From assembly GCF_030013205.1 (NCBI RefSeq), contig NZ_CP122648.1: 64,000 nt of DNA. The stretch is one strand, 5' to 3'. How positions within the stretch are numbered: the stretch's first letter is position 1; every line of letters starts with the position of its first letter. Below, piece by piece: positions 15,053 to 36,040 of the stretch. Under the pieces are notes generated by a model. That model saw only the letters and a program-made list of their open reading frames with translations, was not told the DNA's origin and did no database searches. The translations under genes were made by a program, and so were the position numbers. This DNA comes from Escherichia coli (GTDB lineage: Bacteria; Pseudomonadota; Gammaproteobacteria; Enterobacterales; Enterobacteriaceae).

Positions 15053-15139
15053 GTTTCAACGCCATCAAAACATTGACTTTTATCGCCGTAGCCTTTTCAA
15101 TAAAGGTCTTTTGAAAAGTACCAAAAGGTAACGCAAGCA

Positions 15140-15184
15140 ATGAATGCTGCTATTTTCCGCTTCTTTTTTTACTTTAGCACCTGA
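15140..15184 (+). CDS. pheM: pheST attenuator leader peptide (14 aa, 5 Phe)
   Basis: ATGAATGCTGCTATTTTCCGCTTCTTTTTTTACTTTAGCACCTGA = [14 protein letters not shown]. Confidence 0.85.
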
Positions 15185-15230
15185 CTCCAGGAGGCTAGCG
15201 CGTGAGAAGAGAAACGGAAAACAGCGCCTG

Positions 15231-15257
15231 AAAGCCTCCCAGTGGAGGCTTTTTTTG
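15231..15257 (+). terminator. pheST attenuator terminator hairpin
   Basis: aaagcctcccagtggaggcttttttt between pheM and pheS. Confidence 0.7.
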
Positions 15258-15280
15258 TATGCGCGTTTTGAAAAAATTAA

Positions 15281-18712: not shown

Positions 18713-19012
18713 ATGGCGCTTACAAAAGCTGAAATGTCAGAATATCTGTTTGATAAGCTTGGGCTTAGCAAGCGGGATGCCAAAGAACTGGTTGAACTGT
18801 TTTTCGAAGAGATCCGTCGCGCTCTGGAAAACGGCGAACAGGTGAAACTCTCTGGTTTTGGTAACTTCGATCTGCGTGATAAGAATCAACGCCCGGGACG
18901 TAACCCGAAAACGGGCGAGGATATTCCCATTACAGCACGGCGCGTGGTGACCTTCAGACCCGGGCAGAAGTTAAAAAGCCGGGTCGAAAACGCTTCGCCC
19001 AAAGACGAGTAA
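18713..19012 (+). CDS. ihfA: Integration host factor alpha subunit
   Basis: [99 protein letters not shown]. Confidence 0.97.
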
Positions 19013-19025
19013 TCTGATCTAACTA

Positions 19026-19054
19026 AAAAGGCCGCTCTGCGGCCTTTTTTCTTT
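19026..19054 (+). terminator. ihfA terminator hairpin; also the left copy (attL core) of the island-flanking direct repeat
   Basis: aaaaaggccgctctgcggccttttttcttt; the core ggccgctctgcggccttttttcttt recurs near 36016. Confidence 0.75.
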
Positions 19055-19317
19055 CAATAACCGATTGATTTATAATGTTTTATATATCTTCGTTCCACCA
19101 TGTGTCCACATTCAGTGGAGGGAGAGGGGAGTAAGCCCGCTACATTGTGGGCTTTGTCTTATAGTCTGATCACCGTTTCAAGTCAGTAAGGACACCAAAA
19201 AGAAAACCCGCAGTTTTTACGTTGCGGGTTTGTTGTTCATGTCTGTGAGATAGGGTGCCTTATCGACCTTACCCTGGCAACCGATTGACGGGGGATTGCT
19301 CCCCCGTCGCGGTTTCC

Positions 19318-19458
19318 TTACTGCTTACACTGTAAGAACGCCGCAAACTCCGCTCCCCAGAATCTCATCCGTATTTCGCACAGCGAACCGTGCAACATCC
19401 AGATGATGAGGATTGCCGTCACGCAGAACGTGATGGCCGTAAGCGATTTTTGCGACAT
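19318..19458 (-). CDS. Hok/Gef-family type I toxin (46 aa)
   Basis: MSQKSLTAITFCVTAILIIWMLHGSLCEIRMRFWGAEFAAFLQCKQ: single TM helix then SLCEIR..R....E.AAF signature shared by Hok/Gef/HokA; below the ORF-track size cutoff; coordinates hand-derived. Confidence 0.7.
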   Translation of the reverse strand: MSQKSLTAITFCVTAILIIWMLHGSLCEIRMRFWGAEFAAFLQCKQ

Positions 19459-19612
19459 AGCACTTGCTCCTTTTCCGGAGAGGCGCTAACCTTTCACTTG
19501 TCAAGGTAATGCGGTTAGGGCCTCGGTTAAACAGAAACGTTTTCCGGGGCCTTTCCACATCTGGCCTTCGGGTATTCCCTCCGACCATCAGCCGAAAGGC
19601 ACCCGCGCGCAA
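19325..19612 (-). other. mok-like reading frame fully overlapping the hok-like ORF in another frame (probable translational-coupling frame, not an independent protein)
   Basis: 95-aa track ORF ends 7 nt from the hok-like stop and spans it, the architecture of hok/mok loci. Confidence 0.45.
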
Positions 19613-19648
19613 TCTATCTCTTTTTTGTTACTCCGGCAATTCTGCCTG

Positions 19649-19909
19649 TTAATTTTGAGGTAAGGGCAAACTCATCTGATTGTTTCCTTTGTGTGAAGCT
19701 GGCAGTTCATGCCACGGGATACCTTCTGAAGAGTGAGCGCCGGAGGCGTGTTTCGATGTGAATTTATGGAAAGCTTCCAGTGTTGAGAAGCATACACCGC
19801 ATTCTAGGTTGTTACATTGGTAATACTTTTGCCGCACGGTGTTTGAATCATTTTCCGGACGACTGGTGCGGATTCGGGCAGATGCGCCACAAAGCGGACA
19901 ACGGAACAT
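19649..19909 (-). CDS. ogr: Ogr/Delta-family zinc-finger late-gene activator (P2 Ogr-like)
   Basis: MFRCPLCGASARIRTSRPENDSNTVRQKYYQCNNLECGVCFST...: CxxC ... CxxxxC pattern and spacing of P2 Ogr. Confidence 0.8.
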   Translation of the reverse strand: MFRCPLCGASARIRTSRPENDSNTVRQKYYQCNNLECGVCFSTLEAFHKFTSKHASGAHSSEGIPWHELPASHKGNNQMSLPLPQN

Positions 19910-20119: not shown

Positions 20120-20434
20120 GTGGTTGCTGATCATGAATATTTGTATTGGAAGATAATTGCAATGAGCGAAAGAGTGTTTGAGAAAGAACTATATTCTGAA
20201 TGGGTTATACGCAATAGTCTATATTGGATGACTCCGCTTACTCGATGGAAACTCCATGAAGACGTTTCCCACTGGATAATCTCTTTTGAAAACGATAATC
20301 CCAAATTCCTTTATGAATTCGATAGGCTGCTTAATGATTACTCTTTGCGAGAAAAGCTACAGCATAAAACAGGGGCGTTGAGAGACTCTATTGTCCATAA
20401 AGTGCTTCGCAGTGTTGATGAGAGGCTTTCATAA
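20120..20434 (+). CDS. hxsD: His-Xaa-Ser system protein HxsD (LLNDYxLRE-motif protein)
   Basis: 104-aa ORF containing ...FDRLLNDYSLREKLQHK...; stop overlaps hxsB start (TAATG); true start may be the internal ATG near 20162. Confidence 0.7.
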   Translation: MVADHEYLYWKIIAMSERVFEKELYSEWVIRNSLYWMTPLTRWKLHEDVSHWIISFENDNPKFLYEFDRLLNDYSLREKLQHKTGALRDSIVHKVLRSVDERLS

Positions 20435-21822
20435 TGGAATTGATGCCATTTAATTTTGACAGATTGCCTAATGGACAGGTGTTTATAAGCAACCTTGCAG
20501 GTTTTCATCATTTCATTGGTGAGCAAGACCTTATTGATCTTTCTGATGAGCGAATTAGTTCGGAGCAATCAAACGTGCTAGAAAGTAAGCTTTTCATAAC
20601 CAGTGAAAGCTCATCTGCTATAACTCCCTATGCTTTAAGTTCTGCTTTTGCAAAACGATTGATGAATGAACTGGCTGTCAGGCCAATTTTCATGATTGTA
20701 CCCACATTACGTTGTGACCATACATGCAAGTATTGCCAGGTTAGTAGAGCTTCTGTTAATGCCTCAGGTTACGACCTAAATCCTGAGCTCATCCCCGATA
20801 TTATTTCGGCTATTAAAAAACTATCAACGCCACCTTACAAAATAGAGATACAGGGTGGGGAGCCTCTCTTGCGGTTTGATTTAATTCAGAACATCTATGA
20901 TCAATGTGCTGAAACGCTGGGAAGAACCAATTTTGAGATGGTGGTGGCATCAAGTCTGTCTGTCTTGAATGAGGATATGATTGAATGGTCGAGAGACCGG
21001 AACATAACGTTCTCTGTGTCGCTTGATGGTGAGGAAGTTGTTCACAACAGTAATCGAATTCTTGGTCGTGGGCTTGCGTACAGTAGAACAGTGTCAGGGG
21101 TAGAGGCTATCAAACACTCTTTAGGTGCTGGCCGCGTTGCAACGGTTACTACAGTTACTAAAGAGCTTATCAGACGTCCTGAATCGATTGTTCAGGCTCA
21201 CTTGTCTCTTGGGCTCAAGGACATGTTTATCCGACCTGTTAGTCCCTATGGGTTTGCACAAAAAGCTTCTTTCACCTTTTCTATGGACGAATACTTCAGC
21301 TTCTATGCCTCGTTGATAGATGAAATCCTTAAGATTAATAATGAAGGGATAAGGGTTGTGGAACATTCGGCCTCCATTCATCTGAAAAGGATCTTCAATC
21401 CCGGTTTTAGTGGCTATGCGGATTTAAAGTCTCCAAGTGGAGTCGTGCTTAACAGTATTCTTTTCAATTATGACGGTCGAGTATATGGTAGCGATGAGAG
21501 CCGTATGTTGCAGAAGGTGAATCCTGAAACGGAGTTCAGTGCGGGTGAAGTTAAGACGCTATCATTTTCTGATAGTCCTTACTATAACGCAGTATTGACT
21601 TCATCGTTCAATTTTGCTCTGCCAGGTTGTGATACATGTGCATATCAACCATTTTGTGGTTCAGATCCATGCCAGAACATAAGTGTACAGGGTGAGCCTG
21701 TCGGCGATAGGAGTCGTTCAACGTTTTGTCAATATCACAAGGGGATGTTCAGGTATCTGATGAACTGCATCTCAGAGGGTGGTTCGAAGGCTGAGATGCT
21801 AAAAGGATGGGCATATGTCTGA
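20434..21822 (+). CDS. hxsB: Radical SAM / SPASM-type maturase, first of the pair (HxsB-like)
   Basis: 462 aa; CxxxCxxC in ...PTLRCDHTCKYCQVS...; C-terminal Cys cluster ...LPGCDTCAYQPFCGSDPCQNI...; overlaps the neighbouring genes. Confidence 0.8.
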   Translation: MELMPFNFDRLPNGQVFISNLAGFHHFIGEQDLIDLSDERISSEQSNVLESKLFITSESSSAITPYALSSAFAKRLMNELAVRPIFMIVPTLRCDHTCKYCQVSRASVNASGYDLNPELIPDIISAIKKLSTPPYKIEIQGGEPLLRFDLIQNIYDQCAETLGRTNFEMVVASSLSVLNEDMIEWSRDRNITFSVSLDGEEVVHNSNRILGRGLAYSRTVSGVEAIKHSLGAGRVATVTTVTKELIRRPESIVQAHLSLGLKDMFIRPVSPYGFAQKASFTFSMDEYFSFYASLIDEILKINNEGIRVVEHSASIHLKRIFNPGFSGYADLKSPSGVVLNSILFNYDGRVYGSDESRMLQKVNPETEFSAGEVKTLSFSDSPYYNAVLTSSFNFALPGCDTCAYQPFCGSDPCQNISVQGEPVGDRSRSTFCQYHKGMFRYLMNCISEGGSKAEMLKGWAYV

Positions 21823-22927
21823 GGTTATCAGGAACGATATCTTTCATTTTGCTTCTACAGAGAACGTGCCCACGGGGTTCTATCGGTTATGCAAACAAAA
21901 ACCAGTGAACCCTTTATTCTTTTTGCCCAATTTGCTAGTAGTTGCTGAGGGCAATAATGATGCCATTCCACCATGCTTTGATTTCTCTGTTATTAGCACT
22001 GAATTATTTGAGTCAATTGAAGATGGAGATATTGGGATAATCAACAATGGCAATATGATACGCGTTATTCTGTCACGCAAAGCCAACCATAATACTGTCT
22101 TAGTTACGGAACGCTGCAATAACTTGTGTCTGTTTTGTTCGCAGCCACCAAAGAAAATAAATGATGACTGGCTACTTACCCAATCAGCTCTTGCTATAGC
22201 TTCATTTGGCTTGAACGGAGTTGTTGGGGTCAGCGGTGGTGAACCTTTGCTATATGGGGATGACTTCCTTCACTTCATTGATTTTATCATCGAGAATTCA
22301 CCAGATACTGCTTTACATGTTTTAACAAACGGACGCAAATTTGCTGATACCAACTTTACACAGGAAATGGCAAAGCGAAGCAAAAAGATCAAAATCACCT
22401 TTGGTATCCCGCTCTACTCATCAAGACCACTTGTGCATGATCATCTGGTAGGGAGTGATGGCGCATTTAATGAAACGGTTAAAGGGTTAATCAATGCAGG
22501 AAACTTGGGGATTAATATCGAACTTAGAGTTATTCCTACACTGGCTAACTATACCGAATTGGATGATATCGTAGAATTCGCTGGCCGTGTGTTCTCCAAC
22601 ATCAATCAGATTTCCCTTATGGGGTTGGAGCCTATCGGTTGGGCACGAAAAAACTGGTCCACCATCTTCATTGATCACAGTAGTTATAGTGAGAAAATAA
22701 TCTCTGCCATAGACGCTGCATACAGGTCAGGCATACCTCTGACAATTTTTAATTATCCTTTGTGTTATCTTCCTGAAAGGGCTAGGGAGCTTGCTGTTCA
22801 GTCGATCTCTGATTGGAAAAATTACTATCCAAAAGAATGTGATGAATGTACTCAGAAGCCTTCCTGTGCTGGCTATTTCAGTTCCTCAAAAGGCCGTTTT
22901 CATCAATCACCGAGACCAATTTTATGA
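21815..22927 (+). CDS. hxsC: Radical SAM maturase, second of the pair (HxsC-like)
   Basis: 370 aa; CxxxCxxC in ...VTERCNNLCLFCSQP...; C-terminal Cys-rich ...CDECTQKPSCAGYF...; 8-nt overlap with hxsB, ATGA overlap with hxsA. Confidence 0.8.
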   Translation: MSEVIRNDIFHFASTENVPTGFYRLCKQKPVNPLFFLPNLLVVAEGNNDAIPPCFDFSVISTELFESIEDGDIGIINNGNMIRVILSRKANHNTVLVTERCNNLCLFCSQPPKKINDDWLLTQSALAIASFGLNGVVGVSGGEPLLYGDDFLHFIDFIIENSPDTALHVLTNGRKFADTNFTQEMAKRSKKIKITFGIPLYSSRPLVHDHLVGSDGAFNETVKGLINAGNLGINIELRVIPTLANYTELDDIVEFAGRVFSNINQISLMGLEPIGWARKNWSTIFIDHSSYSEKIISAIDAAYRSGIPLTIFNYPLCYLPERARELAVQSISDWKNYYPKECDECTQKPSCAGYFSSSKGRFHQSPRPIL

Positions 22928-23559
22928 AAAAGTTTAATTTTGCTGCTCTACTTCCGGGATTTTTGGCTCTCAACAATTCTGTATGGGCAAGCGATTCATC
23001 TACAGGAGCGAGTGATTTACCTGGTATGACTCTTAATGAGCATGATTTAGTGATAGCTCCACTTAACACGGAAGTCCCATTTTATATCGCAGGGCATCGA
23101 AGCCATAGTTCTCATAGGAGCCATAGCTCTCATAGATCCTCATCAGGTGGTGGATACTATGGTGGAAGTACCCCCTATTATCCAAAAACATACAGCTCAC
23201 CAAGTTCATCTGGTTCTTCAAGTTCAGGTGCAAGTTCCTCATCGTCCTCTTCCTCGGTGCGTGCACTTCGTTCTAACGATAATAATAGAACCACTAACAC
23301 GAGTTCTGTTGGAACTTCAGAGGTTAACCGTACGAGTAATGGGCTTGCTTCTGATGCAGAGAAACGTAAGCGATTGATTATGCGAGTTCAGTTCGCATTG
23401 CTGGACAGGGGATTTTATAACGGAAATATTGACGGCATAATGGGGCCATCCACAAGGCTGTCTGTGAAAAATTACCGCATTGCGAATGGATTACCGATTC
23501 CTGCAACTGAAACACTCGACGCACAATTGTTAAATTCTTTGAATATATTAGCTCGCTAA
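22924..23559 (+). CDS. hxsA: His-Xaa-Ser repeat protein (HxsA-like), secreted, with peptidoglycan-binding-like C-terminal domain
   Basis: From internal ATG of track ORF 22846..23559: MKKFNFAALLPGFLALNNSVWA (signal peptide), HRSHSSHRSHSSHRS (5 HXS repeats), Ser/Gly-rich linker, C-terminal ...RVQFALLDRGFYNGNIDGIMGPSTRLSVKNYRIANGLPIPATETLDAQLL. Confidence 0.8.
   Translation: MKKFNFAALLPGFLALNNSVWASDSSTGASDLPGMTLNEHDLVIAPLNTEVPFYIAGHRSHSSHRSHSSHRSSSGGGYYGGSTPYYPKTYSSPSSSGSSSSGASSSSSSSSVRALRSNDNNRTTNTSSVGTSEVNRTSNGLASDAEKRKRLIMRVQFALLDRGFYNGNIDGIMGPSTRLSVKNYRIANGLPIPATETLDAQLLNSLNILAR
23097..23135 (+). repeat. Short in-frame tandem DNA repeat encoding the His-Xaa-Ser units
   Basis: agccatagttctcatagg / agccatagctctcataga-like 18-nt units; coordinates approximate. 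Confidence 0.6.
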
Positions 23560-23899: not shown

Positions 23900-25471
23900 T
23901 TACTGAGAGCTCAGATCAACTTTCCAGGGCAACAGATCGCGTACCCGGTTTGCCGGCCAGTCCTGGATATGTTCAATGACGTAACGCAGCCACTTTTCTG
24001 GCTCCACATTGTTCAGACGGCATGTGCCGATCAGCGAGTACAACACCGCCGCATGTTCACCACCGCTGTCGGAACCCGCGAACATCCAGTTTTTCCGGCC
24101 TACGGCCACTCCCCGTAAGGCGTTCTCTGCGGTGTTGTTGTCGATTTCCACCCAGCCATTACTGCAGTACACGTTCAGTGCATCCCACTGTTTCAGCAGG
24201 TATGCGAACGCTTTTGCCGTATCTGAGTGACGCGACAGTGTTTTCATCTGTTGCTGTATCCAGTCATACAGTGACTGCATCAGTGGCGCGGCTCTGGCTT
24301 TTCTTGCCGCCAGACGCTGTTCTGCTGAACAGCCCCGGACCTCTGCCTCGATGGCATACAGTTCACCGATACGCTGCAGGGCTTCCGTGGTGATGTAGGT
24401 GGGCGCTCTTGCATGCACATCGTGGATTTTTCTCCGGGCATGAGCCATACACGCGGCTTCCGTTATTCTGCCGGATTCGTATAACGCCCGGTAACCACCG
24501 TAAGCATCGGCCTGAAGCACACCGCTGTAACCGGCCAGGTGATTTTGTGGATGGATACCTTTCCGGTCCGGACTGTACGCGAACCAGACCGCCGGGGGCA
24601 TCTGTGAACCGGCGTTACGGTCATCACGGACGTAGACCCACAGCCGGGCTGTCCGGGTTTTACCGCTGCCCGGCTCCTGGACCGGGACGGGGATATCATC
24701 AGCATGGACTTTACCGGGCATCAGCACATACTGGCGCAGGACGTCATACAGCGGCTCCAGCAGTTCAGCAACAGCACCTGTCCAGCGCCCCAGTGTGGCA
24801 CGGCTCAGCTCCACTCCCTGACGACGGTATATTTCTGACTGGCGGTATAACGGCAGATGGTCTGCATATTTCCCGGTGACAACATGGGCCAGAAGCCCCG
24901 CTCCGGCATAACTGCGTGCAATGGGTTTTGAAGGTACTGGTGCCTGTACGATATGGTCGCACCGGCAACAGGCCTGTTTCGGACGTTGTGTTTCGATAAC
25001 CTTAAAGGCGCTGCTGATAAGCTCCAGTTGCTCTGACACATCACATCCCAGAGAACTGAGTTCACCACCACAGGCAGGACAGCATTCCTCTTCCGGCCGG
25101 ATAACCCGGGTTTCACGGGGAAGTGAGGCCGGTAACGGTTTACGGGCTGAAGACTGGCGCAGGGCGGATGGCAGTACCGGGTCATATTGCTCACCCAGCG
25201 TTTCCGCCATTTCTTCCTGAAGTGCGCTGATTCGCTCCTGTGCTTCCTGTATCTGCCGTTCGGTTTTTGCACGAAGTTTTTCTGAGCTTTTACCGAACTG
25301 CATACGTTGCAGTTTCGCAACCAGCGCCTTCAGCCGGTTGATTTCGGAAGCATAAGCCGCCACCCGCTGTGAGAGCAGGCGGTTGTATTCAGCCATCTGG
25401 CGGATGGTGTCCTGTTGCGTCTGCAACAGTGCCCGCAGGCGGGCGTTCTCATGAGCAAGTGAGGTGTCCAT
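23900..25471 (-). CDS. IS66-family transposase TnpC
   Basis: 523 aa with leucine-zipper-like N-terminus, Cys cluster (CPACGG...CRCDH) and C-terminal ...[23 protein letters not shown]... typical of IS66 TnpC. Confidence 0.85.
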
Positions 25472-25490
25472 ATCCTCACTTTACAACGGG

Positions 25491-25838
25491 TTATATGCGG
25501 ATTCCAGCGCGTTCCGTTCGTTTCGGGTGCTTCCAGTTGATACCTTCAAGAAGCATGGATAACTGAGCCGGAGTAAGGTGCACCTTGCCGTCACGGGTGA
25601 CTGGCCAGACGAAGCGGCCCCGCTCCAGGCGTTTGGTGAAGAGGCACAGTCCGTCACTGTCAGCCCACAACACTTTTATCTGGTCACCCCGGCGTCCGCG
25701 GAAGATGAACAGGTGTCCGGAGAACGGGTCATCCTTCAGGACGTTCTGAACTTTTGATGCCAGGCCGTTAAAGCCATTTCGCATATCGGTGATACCTGCA
25801 ACCAGCCAGATACGCGAACCTGCAGGGAGAGATATCAT
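25491..25838 (-). CDS. IS66-family accessory protein TnpB
   Basis: 115 aa, ...RIWLVAGITDMRNGFNGLASKVQNVL... Confidence 0.8.
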   Translation of the reverse strand: MISLPAGSRIWLVAGITDMRNGFNGLASKVQNVLKDDPFSGHLFIFRGRRGDQIKVLWADSDGLCLFTKRLERGRFVWPVTRDGKVHLTPAQLSMLLEGINWKHPKRTERAGIRI

Positions 25839-26515
25839 CAGTGGCTGCTCCCTTTTATTTCGCGGATAAGTGTCTGTAATAACGCCGGCGTCAGTTTACC
25901 TTTAAGCCTGAGAGTTCCGGCCGGCAGAACCAGCTCACAACACAGACTGTCGGACGGTGTATTTATCTGCTCTGGTTCCTGTGCGGGGGCCGGGATTTTA
26001 TTATCCGGCTCCGGCGTTAACGTCACGGGAAGCAGTGCCGGCATATTTTTTCCGGAAGGCAGCAGGCCACCTTTCCGGTATTGATGGCGCCAGTTGAAGA
26101 GCAGGTTATCGTTGATTCCGTTTTCCCGGGCGATCTGCGCCACACAGGCTCCGGGCTGCAGTGACTGCTCCACTAAGGCGATTTTAAACTCATAAGGGAA
26201 GTTGGGCCGCCGGGGACGTTTTTTTACCACGGGGGCTTCGGATATAACGGTGCTTTCAGGACGTACGACTGGTACCGTGGAAAATTGTCCGTAAAGGCAG
26301 GCATCAAGTTCCTGCTCCGACATGCCTGCGGGCAAAGGCCACGAAAGGCCAGCTCTCCGAAAGCGCACGAACATACTACAAACTGTTGATTTTGGTACAC
26401 CCAGGCGACGCCCGGCCACAACCCGGGGTAAATGTTCTTCAAAGTGAAGACGTAAAGCTTCAGTGATCCAGGTCCGGTGTTTCATACGATAGTGTCCATT
26501 AAAAATGATGGACAT
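25838..26515 (-). CDS. IS66-family accessory protein TnpA (start uncertain; track ORF may be over-extended)
   Basis: ...RPRRPNFPYEFKIALVEQSLQPGACVAQIARENGINDNLLFNWRHQYRKGG... Confidence 0.65.
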   Translation of the reverse strand: MSIIFNGHYRMKHRTWITEALRLHFEEHLPRVVAGRRLGVPKSTVCSMFVRFRRAGLSWPLPAGMSEQELDACLYGQFSTVPVVRPESTVISEAPVVKKRPRRPNFPYEFKIALVEQSLQPGACVAQIARENGINDNLLFNWRHQYRKGGLLPSGKNMPALLPVTLTPEPDNKIPAPAQEPEQINTPSDSLCCELVLPAGTLRLKGKLTPALLQTLIREIKGSSH

Positions 26516-26568
26516 TATTTTTGTAGAGCCGGAGGAAACAGACCAGACGGTTTAAATGAGCCGGTTAC

Positions 26569-26576
26569 ATGCATTT
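26569..26576. repeat. Target-site duplication (right copy) of the IS66-family element
   Basis: ATGCATTT. Confidence 0.7.
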
Positions 26577-27266
26577 CGGGGTAGAGTTCTGCACGCCCAC
26601 GTGCCAGCGTGATGGAAAATGATGCGGCTCCGCGTTGTAGCTGCTGCCACTTTGCCGCCGCTGCGCGTCTTGCTGCCTGCTCGTTCTGATAAGTCTTGCG
26701 TAACACAAACACATTGCCTTCCGCACCTTCCATATAATCACCTTCACGGCTGCTGCTTTTCTCCTTTTTAGGTTTTGGTGGTTTGCGGCGTTTCACACTG
26801 ACTTTTTTCTTTTTCCCGTAATTAAGATCAAGCCAGTAAGCGCGTACCCCCGTATACGCTTCGCGGTCAGCAATGCGGAACTGATGGCGATCGCCGCTGT
26901 TGCGCGTGATGGCGAACGATGGCAACGGCTGGCCCTGTGCGTTCACGCCACCGCCTGGCATGATGAATAACAGATTATCGCTTTTTACCGTGGTGATTGC
27001 GCCCAGCATTTCCGCCATGCGCGTAAGGAAGGACATGTCGCTTTCTTCGGTCTGGTCGGCGTGGTCGATTTCGATATCCATCAGCATTTCGCTGATTTGC
27101 GGTTTCAGGCCGTACCGATGAGCGATGGCGGATACCACACGCTCAACGGTCACATCATGCCAGGACACCTCACGTTTAACGTTAAATTCATCCCGAAAAT
27201 CTGCGCTTCTGGCTGAAACAGTCAGCCTGTCCGGCGGTCCTTCGTGAGCGATTTCATCAACAATTA

Positions 27267-34642: not shown

Positions 34643-35221
34643 TTGGCCGCTTTTGCGGGCTTCCGGTGTAAGGCTGTCCAGCCAGGCGCATGCTTCGCTT
34701 TCGTTCTTGACGGCCGCAGGCTTCAGATAGAAACTTATCTGAGTAAGTCTGAATGTGTTCAGTTGCTGGATGCACTGGCTGAAAATCCCGATGAACGGCT
34801 GGCTGTCGAAATCCTTCTGTCGACCGGGGCGCGATGGGGCGAGGTAGCGGTACTGGAGCAGCGCCGTGTTCTTCATTGTCGAATCACTTTTTCAAAAACG
34901 AAGAACAGCAAAAACCGTACCGTTCCTATTTCTGAAAGCCTGTTTGAAAAGATCAAAAAACGGGGCGGGAAACTGGTGTTTCCGACGCTGGATTATCCAT
35001 TGGTTCGCGATGTCATCAAAACGGTCGCATCTGATGTTCCTGACGGCCAGGCTGTTCATGCGCTGCGCCACACCTTCGCCAGTCATTTCATGATGAACGG
35101 CGGCAATATTCTGACGCTCCAGAAAATTCTGGGGCACGCAAAGATTCAGACAACGATGATTTATGCCCATCTTGCGCCGGATTACTTGCAGGATGCGGTG
35201 AGATTTAATCCAATAGCTTGA
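34643..35221 (+). pseudogene. int: Tyrosine recombinase (phage integrase) C-terminal catalytic-domain fragment
   Basis: ...LSTGARWGEVA...NRTVPIS...HALRHTFASHFMMNGGNILTLQKILGHAKIQTTMIYAHLAPDYL (R, HxxR, catalytic Y); ~190 codons versus ~330 for full length; N-terminal domain not found in frame. Confidence 0.7.
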
Positions 35222-36015: not shown

Positions 36016-36040
36016 GGCCGCTCTGCGGCCTTTTTTCTTT
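36016..36040 (+). repeat. Right copy (attR core) of the island-flanking direct repeat; doubles as the terminator-like hairpin upstream of btuC
   Basis: ggccgctctgcggccttttttcttt, identical to ~19030-19054. Confidence 0.75.

Follow-up and report, generated by a model that had tools for sequence, protein, structure and literature searches.

A probable hok/Sok-type toxin and antisense-RNA module at the margin of a degraded P2-like prophage adjoining ihfA in Escherichia coli

Between ihfA and an ogr-type gene in a 64,000-nt stretch of Escherichia coli DNA (contig NZ_CP122648.1, hereafter the window) lies a 46-codon reading frame that a first-pass annotation, made from the sequence alone, had taken for a Hok/Gef toxin overlapped by a mok gene. 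The locus raises the question of whether a complete toxin-antitoxin cassette is present at this site, whether it is built and controlled as hok/mok/sok of plasmid R1 is, and whether it is still functional inside a prophage remnant. We found that the locus has the features of a hok/Sok-type toxin and antisense-RNA module at the margin of a degraded P2-like prophage adjoining ihfA, and we consider it very probable that it is an intact cassette of ~400 bp, carried as P2-like cargo between ogr and the attachment site and surviving in the decayed prophage at the ihfA terminator. The locus is already known, as it is annotated in RefSeq and belongs to a Hok cluster that has been catalogued and experimentally sampled; its sole unusual trait is that the supposed mok leader gene is not conserved.

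The 46-codon frame encodes a Hok/Gef family peptide. Its translation, MSQKSLTAITFCVTAILIIWMLHGSLCEIRMRFWGAEFAAFLQCKQ, is exactly the one given by the first-pass annotation, and it matched the Pfam model HOK_GEF (PF01848; E = 9.1e-8, residues 7-44 against model positions 5-42 of 42) and PHROG 251, ‘MokW-like host killing’ (E = 2.7e-23), while an identical protein in RefSeq, WP_001416438.1, is labelled ‘Hok/Gef family protein’. The single hydrophobic stretch that had been read as a transmembrane helix spans residues 6-22, with a mean Kyte-Doolittle hydropathy of 2.44 versus 2.66 for R1 Hok. Residues M1, C16, T18, L30, C31, E32, and E41 (logo numbering) are kept in more than 80% of Hok peptides (Escalera-Maurer et al., 2026 preprint; bioRxiv 10.1101/2025.08.07.668861); the window peptide carries the equivalents M1, C12, T14, L26, C27, E28, and E37, a mapping onto the logo positions that is our own reading of the alignments. 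Four residues (T14, L26, E28, and E37) are invariant in an alignment with HokA-E, R1 Hok, and HokW, and Cys27 and Cys44 are conserved. Members of the subfamily from E. coli, Shigella, E. albertii, Salmonella, and Klebsiella oxytoca all keep the length of 46 residues and share M1, Q3, K4, G24, C27, E28, A36, E37, A39, A40, L42, Q43, C44, and K45; residue 33, an arginine in the window allele, is variable in the family alignment (R, S, N, or K).

The peptide is 39% identical to a member of the HokA cluster and 24-30% identical to HokB, HokC, HokD, HokE, R1 Hok, and HokW, and it is therefore none of the named Hok peptides; the suspicion that the locus corresponds to no K-12 hok locus was borne out by this alignment. 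The closest characterised cluster is that of K-12 HokA, whose NCBIfam model (NF007290) was the best-scoring of the curated models and which shares with the window peptide a similar tail (SLCE...ELAAFLAC/EFAAFLQC) with a C-terminal cysteine. We rejected orthology with HokA, as the score of 36.1 bits falls far under the equivalog cut-off of 89; the match to the NCBIfam Hok model was likewise weak (25 bits, cut-off 73). The window peptide is also four residues shorter than HokA, and its gene occupies a different genomic site, as prophage cargo at ihfA. Another point of comparison is hokW-sokW of the Stx2 prophage Sp5, a prophage-borne type I system in which HokW is made on induction and phage release is raised about two-fold (PMC8621323). 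The label ‘MokW-like host killing’, under which phage annotation files the window family, is misleading: primer sequences and Table S2 place HokW (MKQQKAM...VDYESEK, 51 residues) in the HokD cluster, cluster 35, at 30% identity to the window Hok, and we therefore rejected the identification of the ‘MokW-like’ family with the characterised Sp5 hokW.

The family to which the window peptide does belong has been catalogued as Hok ‘cluster 72’, with members 72_1621 and 72_1589 (Escalera-Maurer et al., 2026 preprint; bioRxiv 10.1101/2025.08.07.668861). The latter is the copy that sits beside lom in Stx phages, a locus separate from hokW. The former differs from the window allele by one nucleotide in the reading frame (S33 in place of R33) and has the same length of 46 residues and the same listed Shine-Dalgarno sequence (SD), GGAGC. 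It was cloned under an arabinose promoter as one of 45 peptides in the toxicity assay. Of these, 42 proved toxic; the only peptides named as non-toxic are 19_179, 60_1482, and 69_1540, and 72_1621 is not among them (bioRxiv 10.1101/2025.08.07.668861). By analogy with this variant, which largely answers the question of toxicity, the R33 peptide of the window would be expected to be toxic when induced. That survey analysed coding sequences only, and Mok, Sok, and the mRNA elements were not curated in it (bioRxiv 10.1101/2025.08.07.668861).

The first-pass annotation had placed the frame immediately inside the left attachment repeat of a prophage remnant, and this placement holds. In the window, ihfA ends at 19012 and is followed by the left copy of a 25-nt exact direct repeat that flanks an island of ~17 kb; the terminator of the hok transcript lies ~150 nt inward of this copy. 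The order within the island is hok, ogr, hxsDBCA, an IS66 element, P2-type tail-gene fragments, and an integrase fragment, after which comes btuC, and the host prophage is accordingly degraded (IS66 insertion, truncated tail genes, integrase fragment). No second hok copy was found anywhere in the 64-kb window. Over 39.7 kb the window agrees at 99.99% identity with E. coli K_EC180, which was isolated from swine faeces, and the RefSeq annotation of that genome is therefore valid for the window as well; the remaining 100% matches are ETEC strains.

The decay of the surrounding prophage suggests a reading in which the cassette is a silent relic, intact in sequence yet unexpressed or non-toxic and without function in the island. 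Its model would be the K-12 chromosomal hok loci, which are thought to be inactivated, and the weakness of the predicted promoters when judged by consensus also speaks for it. Against it, no frameshifts, stop codons, or IS insertions were found within 19200-19640, the cassette shares 93-95% identity with those of free phages, both its structure, in which compensatory changes occur, and its promoter boxes are conserved, and the one-residue variant 72_1621 is among the tested peptides reported as toxic, the differing residue 33 being variable in the family. We judge such a relic to be very improbable.

The cassette also occurs outside the window. A search of 5426 complete E. coli genomes returned related DNA from 1755, with at least 80% of the 461-nt query covered in 1638 of them. 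The junction of ihfA, attachment site, and hok was common to 294 of the 5426 genomes, most matching the junction probe only up to 19054. The cassette (~19245-19640) shared 93-98% identity with copies in P2-like phages that are free or inducible (Chuche, P88, PhiR44_2, and others) and was ~80% identical beside lom in the lambdoid Stx phages and 74-79% identical at other E. coli sites. Phage Chuche carries, in this order, cox, C, int, [attP], mom/com-like genes, hok, ogr, and D. Salmonella has the ogr-hok-att-ihfA layout of the window (gpU-gpD-ogr-hok-ihfA-pheT). Among the best 80 IMG/VR contigs, an ogr homologue ended at nearly the same distance before hok in 70 (exactly the same in 63) and 47 were provirus contigs that ended at the hok stop codon; the ihfA attachment core was present in only 4 of the 33 that had downstream sequence. 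A scan of genome contigs returned six loci, with three E. coli-like contigs labelled Collinsella, Planococcaceae, and Xanthomonas probably representing contamination. The cassette is a mobile and common cargo of P2-like phages, held at a fixed distance after ogr; it is standard ogr-proximal cargo and frequently lies outermost among the prophage genes.

Both promoters of the cassette were assigned by homology and conservation, as a generic sigma-70 scan found neither. The predicted hok promoter (coordinates of this and all other features are given in Table 1) starts 10 nt past the ogr stop codon and is weak, with 8 of 12 consensus matches, which is under the threshold of the scan. Similarity among hok copies stops upstream of its -35 box, and the -10 box, which varies among TAGATT, TAGAAT, and TAAATT, keeps a fixed distance to GCGGGUGCC, the conserved 5' end, whether the context is P2-like, lambdoid, or chromosomal. 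Because no terminator lies in the 10 nt between the ogr stop codon and this promoter, transcription may also read through from ogr into hok. The 5' end of the mRNA was placed from the start of the alignment to Rfam RF01794 (‘sok’) together with the promoter spacing, and the 3' end from the terminator hairpin. The whole of RF01794 aligned to the hok strand (19604..19445; E = 8.5e-9) at 47.3 bits, against a gathering threshold of 59; all cluster-72 loci scored 30-57 bits and an R1-type plasmid control 87 bits. In this control, too, the match lay on the hok strand, and its end coincided with the hok AUG; the family therefore describes the leader of the hok mRNA, and its first position corresponds to the expected 5' end. 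The resulting predicted length is similar to that of the R1 hok mRNA, which we take to be 398 nt.

A 403-nt RNA running from 19605 to 19203 folded with a minimum free energy (MFE) of -176 kcal/mol (z = -8.4). In this fold the 5' end pairs with a segment ~330 nt away, in the tac/fbi arrangement described for R1 (PMC9841398); this long-range pairing had been proposed as a check on the locus, and it was recovered both in the MFE structure and, with compensatory changes, across homologues. The consensus was built from 15 loci: the window, phage P88, E. albertii, a Citrobacter MAG, an Stx phage, three other E. coli contexts, K. oxytoca, and six from Salmonella. It comprised 77 pairs, with 95.7% of cells paired compared with 37-42% in controls slid by 1-3 columns, and 21 of the consensus pairs showed compensatory changes, compared with 12.5±2.1 in shuffles, none of 500 of which reached as high a count. 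The tac/fbi helix contributes 10 pairs to the consensus, seven conserved and three changed on both sides in 6 of the 15 sequences, and the mean column identity of fbi is 0.83 versus 0.46 just downstream.

Between these ends, the fold places parts of the leader and the start of hok in further helices. The GAGG motif (19524..19521) is buried in helix 5 (96.7% paired), which carries a GC-to-AU compensatory change in three sequences and which RF01794 aligns to the equivalent hairpin of the R1 family; the complement of this hairpin would form the stem-loop of the predicted Sok-like RNA. The hok SD, GGAG, stands at 19470..19467, 8 nt before the AUG, within a local hairpin, and the start region of hok (19458..19443) is paired with a segment of the coding sequence through helices 8-9 (13 pairs, 98-99% paired). 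Eight of these 13 pairs are invariant, and as invariant pairs neither support nor oppose pairing, helices 8-9 rest on the energy model. The terminator hairpin is kept in the P2-type copies of E. coli, and a similar hairpin takes its place in Salmonella. Read from the sequence, tac (GGG-U-GCCUUU) would also be able to pair with AAAGGCCCC. The truncated R1 mRNA ends after a stem-loop comparable to the one that directly follows the hok stop codon here. When the 3'-truncated RNA was folded, tac moved into a local 5' hairpin and the GAGG hairpin stayed closed; the MFE fold held no R1-like tac/ucb ‘open’ form. In the models, the fold of the predicted mRNA is conserved and covarying, includes tac/fbi pairing, and buries the ribosome-binding site and start codon of hok.

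The antisense half of the module is predicted where homology to R1 would place it. On the strand opposite to hok, the hexamers and 17-nt spacer TTGCTC-17-TAACCT are homologous, position for position, to TTGCGC-17-TATCCT of R1, which from work of the Gerdes laboratory we take to be the Sok promoter, and RF01794 aligns end to end on both loci. The -10 box has a column identity of 0.98, beside a leader segment (19518..19499) that is among the least conserved in the leader (mean column identity 0.66), and in some Salmonella copies it reads TATCCT as in R1. With 6 of 12 consensus matches the promoter is weak, and the generic scan missed it. The RNA that it would produce folds at -24.8 kcal/mol (z = -3.4) and leaves a 9-nt unpaired 5' tail. 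A convergent Sok-type antisense promoter and RNA homologous to those of R1 are thus predicted, and the convergent promoter and hairpin lie at the place where the first-pass annotation had expected a Sok-like antitoxin. That annotation would have dropped its reading had there been no toxicity and no antisense RNA or conserved fold elements of the hok mRNA, which is not what these comparisons returned: the fold is conserved, and the 72_1621 variant is not among the three non-toxic peptides.

Table 1. Features of the hok/Sok-type module and its surroundings, in coordinates of the 64,000-nt window
Feature	Position	Strand	Basis or remark
Left copy of 25-nt att direct repeat (= ihfA terminator)	19030..19054		Exact repeat; right copy 36016-36040
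Intrinsic-terminator-like hairpin and U run AAACCCGCAACGUAAAAACUGCGGGUUUUCUUUUU	19204..19231	-	Stem from + strand scan; U run read from sequence
Predicted full-length hok mRNA, ~405 nt	19200..19604	-	Both ends deduced
fbi-like 3' element CGAUAAGGCACCC, complementary to tac	19253..19265	-	MFE fold; consensus
Stable 3' stem-loop directly past hok stop	19279..19314	-	Helices 14-15, 99-100% paired, 5 compensatory pairs
hok coding sequence, 46-aa Hok/Gef toxin of ‘cluster 72’	19318..19458	-	ORF, Pfam, PHROG, RefSeq
Overlapping -1-frame ORF (‘mok’ of the first-pass annotation), not conserved	19325..19612	-	Same register as R1 mok
Coding segment GCGGAGUUUGCGGCGU (codons 36-41), pairing with hok start region	19338..19353	-	Helices 8-9
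Local hairpin around hok SD	19459..19487	-	Helix 7, 98.7% paired
Predicted Sok-type antisense promoter: -35 TTGCTC (19464-19469), 17-nt spacer, -10 TAACCT (19487-19492)	19464..19492	+	Homology to R1
Variable leader segment, complementary to 5' tail of Sok-like RNA; position of R1 mok start codon	19499..19518	-	
Predicted Sok-like antisense RNA, ~60 nt, unpaired 5' tail and GC-rich stem-loop	19499..19560	+	Both ends deduced
Hairpin burying conserved GAGG against GGCCCC, ucb/anti-SD-like	19519..19551	-	MFE fold; helix 5
tac-like 5' element GGGUGCCUUUCG	19593..19604	-	MFE fold; consensus helices 1-2
Predicted hok promoter: -35 TTGCCG (19639..19634), 17-nt spacer, -10 TAGATT (19616..19611)	19611..19639	-	Read from sequence
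ogr/Delta-type late-gene activator of P2-like element	19909..19649	-	Directly upstream of hok promoter

The locus shares with R1 hok/mok/sok the order in which its elements are predicted (promoter, tac, anti-SD/GAGG hairpin, Sok target, Sok promoter in the leader, hok SD, hok, 3' stem-loop, fbi, and terminator). It differs from R1 in its site on a P2-like prophage rather than a plasmid, in a Hok peptide that is 30% identical, in a hok AUG that lies ~13 nt nearer to the Sok promoter in the Rfam alignment, and in the lack, across its cluster, of a conserved mok start codon or an open leader frame. The last of these bears on the longer reading frame that the first-pass annotation had likened to mok. 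This 95-codon frame, which begins with TTG, does contain the whole hok frame in another register, as had been stated; its end, which had been put 7 nt downstream of hok, falls 7 nt before the hok stop codon in the orientation of the gene. Its identification as mok was not supported by comparison with other copies.

In R1, the mok AUG lies 58 nt before the hok AUG, and Hok is no longer made when stop codons interrupt mok ahead of the hok start (PMC9841398). Under a canonical hok/mok/sok arrangement, Mok would be translated here from the -1 frame and coupled to hok translation, and it would be the direct target of Sok. The window allele permits this in part, as its -1 frame, in the register of R1 mok, runs without a stop from the GAGG past the hok start, and its GAGG/anti-SD hairpin and the target of the Sok tail are positioned as in R1. 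The start codon is where the arrangement becomes doubtful: the candidates are a TTG (19504, at -46 relative to hok) that follows the GAGG by 16 nt and lacks a separate SD, or an AUU at 10 nt (19510, -52), and none of 18 diverse loci had an ATG, GTG, or TTG 5-13 nt after the conserved GAGG, a span in which the R1-type control has its ATG at 8 nt. The best 80 phage contigs, all near-identical, fell into 14 leader alleles, and in 54 of them the leader was of the window type, the TTG at -46 being the commonest allele among these close relatives; the other 26, however, had stops in the mok frame or lacked a start codon. Among the 18 diverse loci, moreover, all three frames were stopped between the GAGG and the hok SD in 10, including those of the free phage P88 and an Stx phage. 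Farther downstream, the mok frame stays open to near the hok stop only if Cys27 is encoded by TGC, as in the window; the synonymous TGT of most homologues creates a TGA in the mok frame. We therefore regard translation of a Mok peptide in the R1 manner as unlikely. A leader mini-ORF (GUG-AAA/AUA-GGU-UAG) was considered in its place and rejected, as roughly half of the loci lack it and its distance from the GAGG is 23 nt.

Since no conserved mok was found, we file the locus as hok/Sok and not as a three-gene hok/mok/sok system. As Hok of R1 needs mok and no conserved mok is seen here, cluster 72 would either work without mok or use something that is not recognisable as such, and because the leader lacks a conserved, translatable mok frame, control by Sok in this cluster is probably not exerted through mok translation. 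It is possible, and we suggest it only tentatively, that the cluster-72 loci are mok-less hok/Sok systems that have kept the R1-like GAGG/anti-SD hairpin and the Sok target in an untranslated leader; the Sok-like RNA and the tac/fbi pairing would then control Hok purely through RNA structure and RNase cleavage at the buried SD and AUG, and the variable target of the Sok tail would make the antitoxin specific to each copy.

For the intact cassette that we consider very probable, homology to R1 suggests a sequence of events in which the full-length hok mRNA would be translationally inert and stable, and trimming of its 3' end would remove fbi and activate it. The short, unstable antisense RNA would pair with the leader and lead to its decay or to a block of translation. 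Should transcription stop or the DNA be lost, the antisense RNA would decay first, and Hok would then insert into the inner membrane and collapse the membrane potential. Such a module could serve to stabilise the prophage or island (post-segregationally), to exclude other phages, or to help lysis. The exclusion of other phages has been reported for hok/sok of R1. Help with lysis has been reported for hokW-sokW (PMC8621323).

The locus has little discovery value as such, and its use lies in the annotation of the leader and the antisense RNA: because both fall below the Rfam gathering threshold in this cluster, the antitoxin half of the module is left without annotation in over 1,700 complete E. 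coli genomes. The missing conserved mok would be a modest departure from the textbook mechanism of R1, and it bears on how Sok may act without a leader peptide.

The 25-nt att core of the P2-like prophage remnant coincides with the ihfA terminator and lies within a match to STnc540, an enterobacterial small RNA located at the ihfA 3′ end. The Rfam match spans the att core, with good alignment confined to the portion up to the terminator, and the same model scored 171.6 bits at a Salmonella locus carrying a prophage in the same site. The ihfA/STnc540 terminator is the insertion site of the P2-like element, with the copy made at 36016-36040. Coordinates of this and other features are collected in the table, where the Phe leader and RprA are ordinary features expected for this chromosomal region.

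Features of the window and of the comparison loci
Feature	Sequence	Position	Strand	Remarks
espL1, type III effector gene	window	about 9418-11316	-	between yniD and thrS; annotation of matching K_EC180 (swine faecal E. coli) record
Phe leader RF01859	window	15134-15258	+	74 bits; upstream of pheS
STnc540 (Rfam)	window	18954-19110	+	41.9 bits, gathering score 38
His-Xaa-Ser cluster hxsD, hxsB, hxsC, hxsA	window	about 20162-23559	+	K_EC180 annotation, coordinates transferred
IS66-family element, ISCro1 type	window	about 23900-27225		tnpA, tnpB, transposase
Integrase fragment, 152 aa	window	about 34762-35220		
RprA sRNA RF00034	window	60772-60879	-	118.5 bits
R1-type hok locus	L020	544-603		IncFII plasmid pMTY1886
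Two cluster-72 hok copies	L018 (Salmonella enterica)	2501-2641 and 2991-3131		
Two cluster-72 hok copies	L019 (Salmonella enterica)	2501-2641 and 2995-3135		

Within the remnant, the hxs cluster directly adjoins ogr and occupies the place that gene D has in P2; comprising two radical-SAM maturases and a repeat peptide, it looks like an unusual cargo for a phage island. The IS66-family element is bordered by a truncated gpD/VgrG-family gene, and a truncated tape-measure gene lies beyond it. Because of this insertion and these truncations, and because the integrase is only a fragment, the island is a non-excisable remnant.

The hok stop codon was the exact contig end in 47 of the 80 best-matching IMG/VR provirus contigs, so the outermost gene called in P2-like prophages of this kind is typically hok. 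Such predicted boundaries exclude the 3′ UTR of hok, with its fbi and terminator. Three near-identical E. coli-type hok loci on short contigs of assemblies that bear the names Collinsella sp., Planococcaceae bacterium, and Xanthomonas pisi are most likely contaminant DNA of enterobacterial or phage origin. At the R1-type plasmid locus, the mok ATG precedes the hok ATG by 57 nt, not 58 nt, which places it in frame with hok and predicts a 71-aa Mok-Hok fusion; the sole RefSeq feature there is a shortened Hok CDS.

Both cassettes of each S. enterica locus are complete and stand in tandem at a spacing of about 490 nt, every copy having its own RF01794-matching leader, and the two copies differ in their Sok-target segments. 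Across the IMG/VR contigs, the part of the leader complementary to the 5′ tail of the predicted Sok RNA (window 19499-19518) occurs as 14 alleles, among carriers of which the Hok peptides are 98% identical. This allelic variety would fit a diversification of antitoxin specificity between co-resident hok copies; three related places are present in K_EC180.
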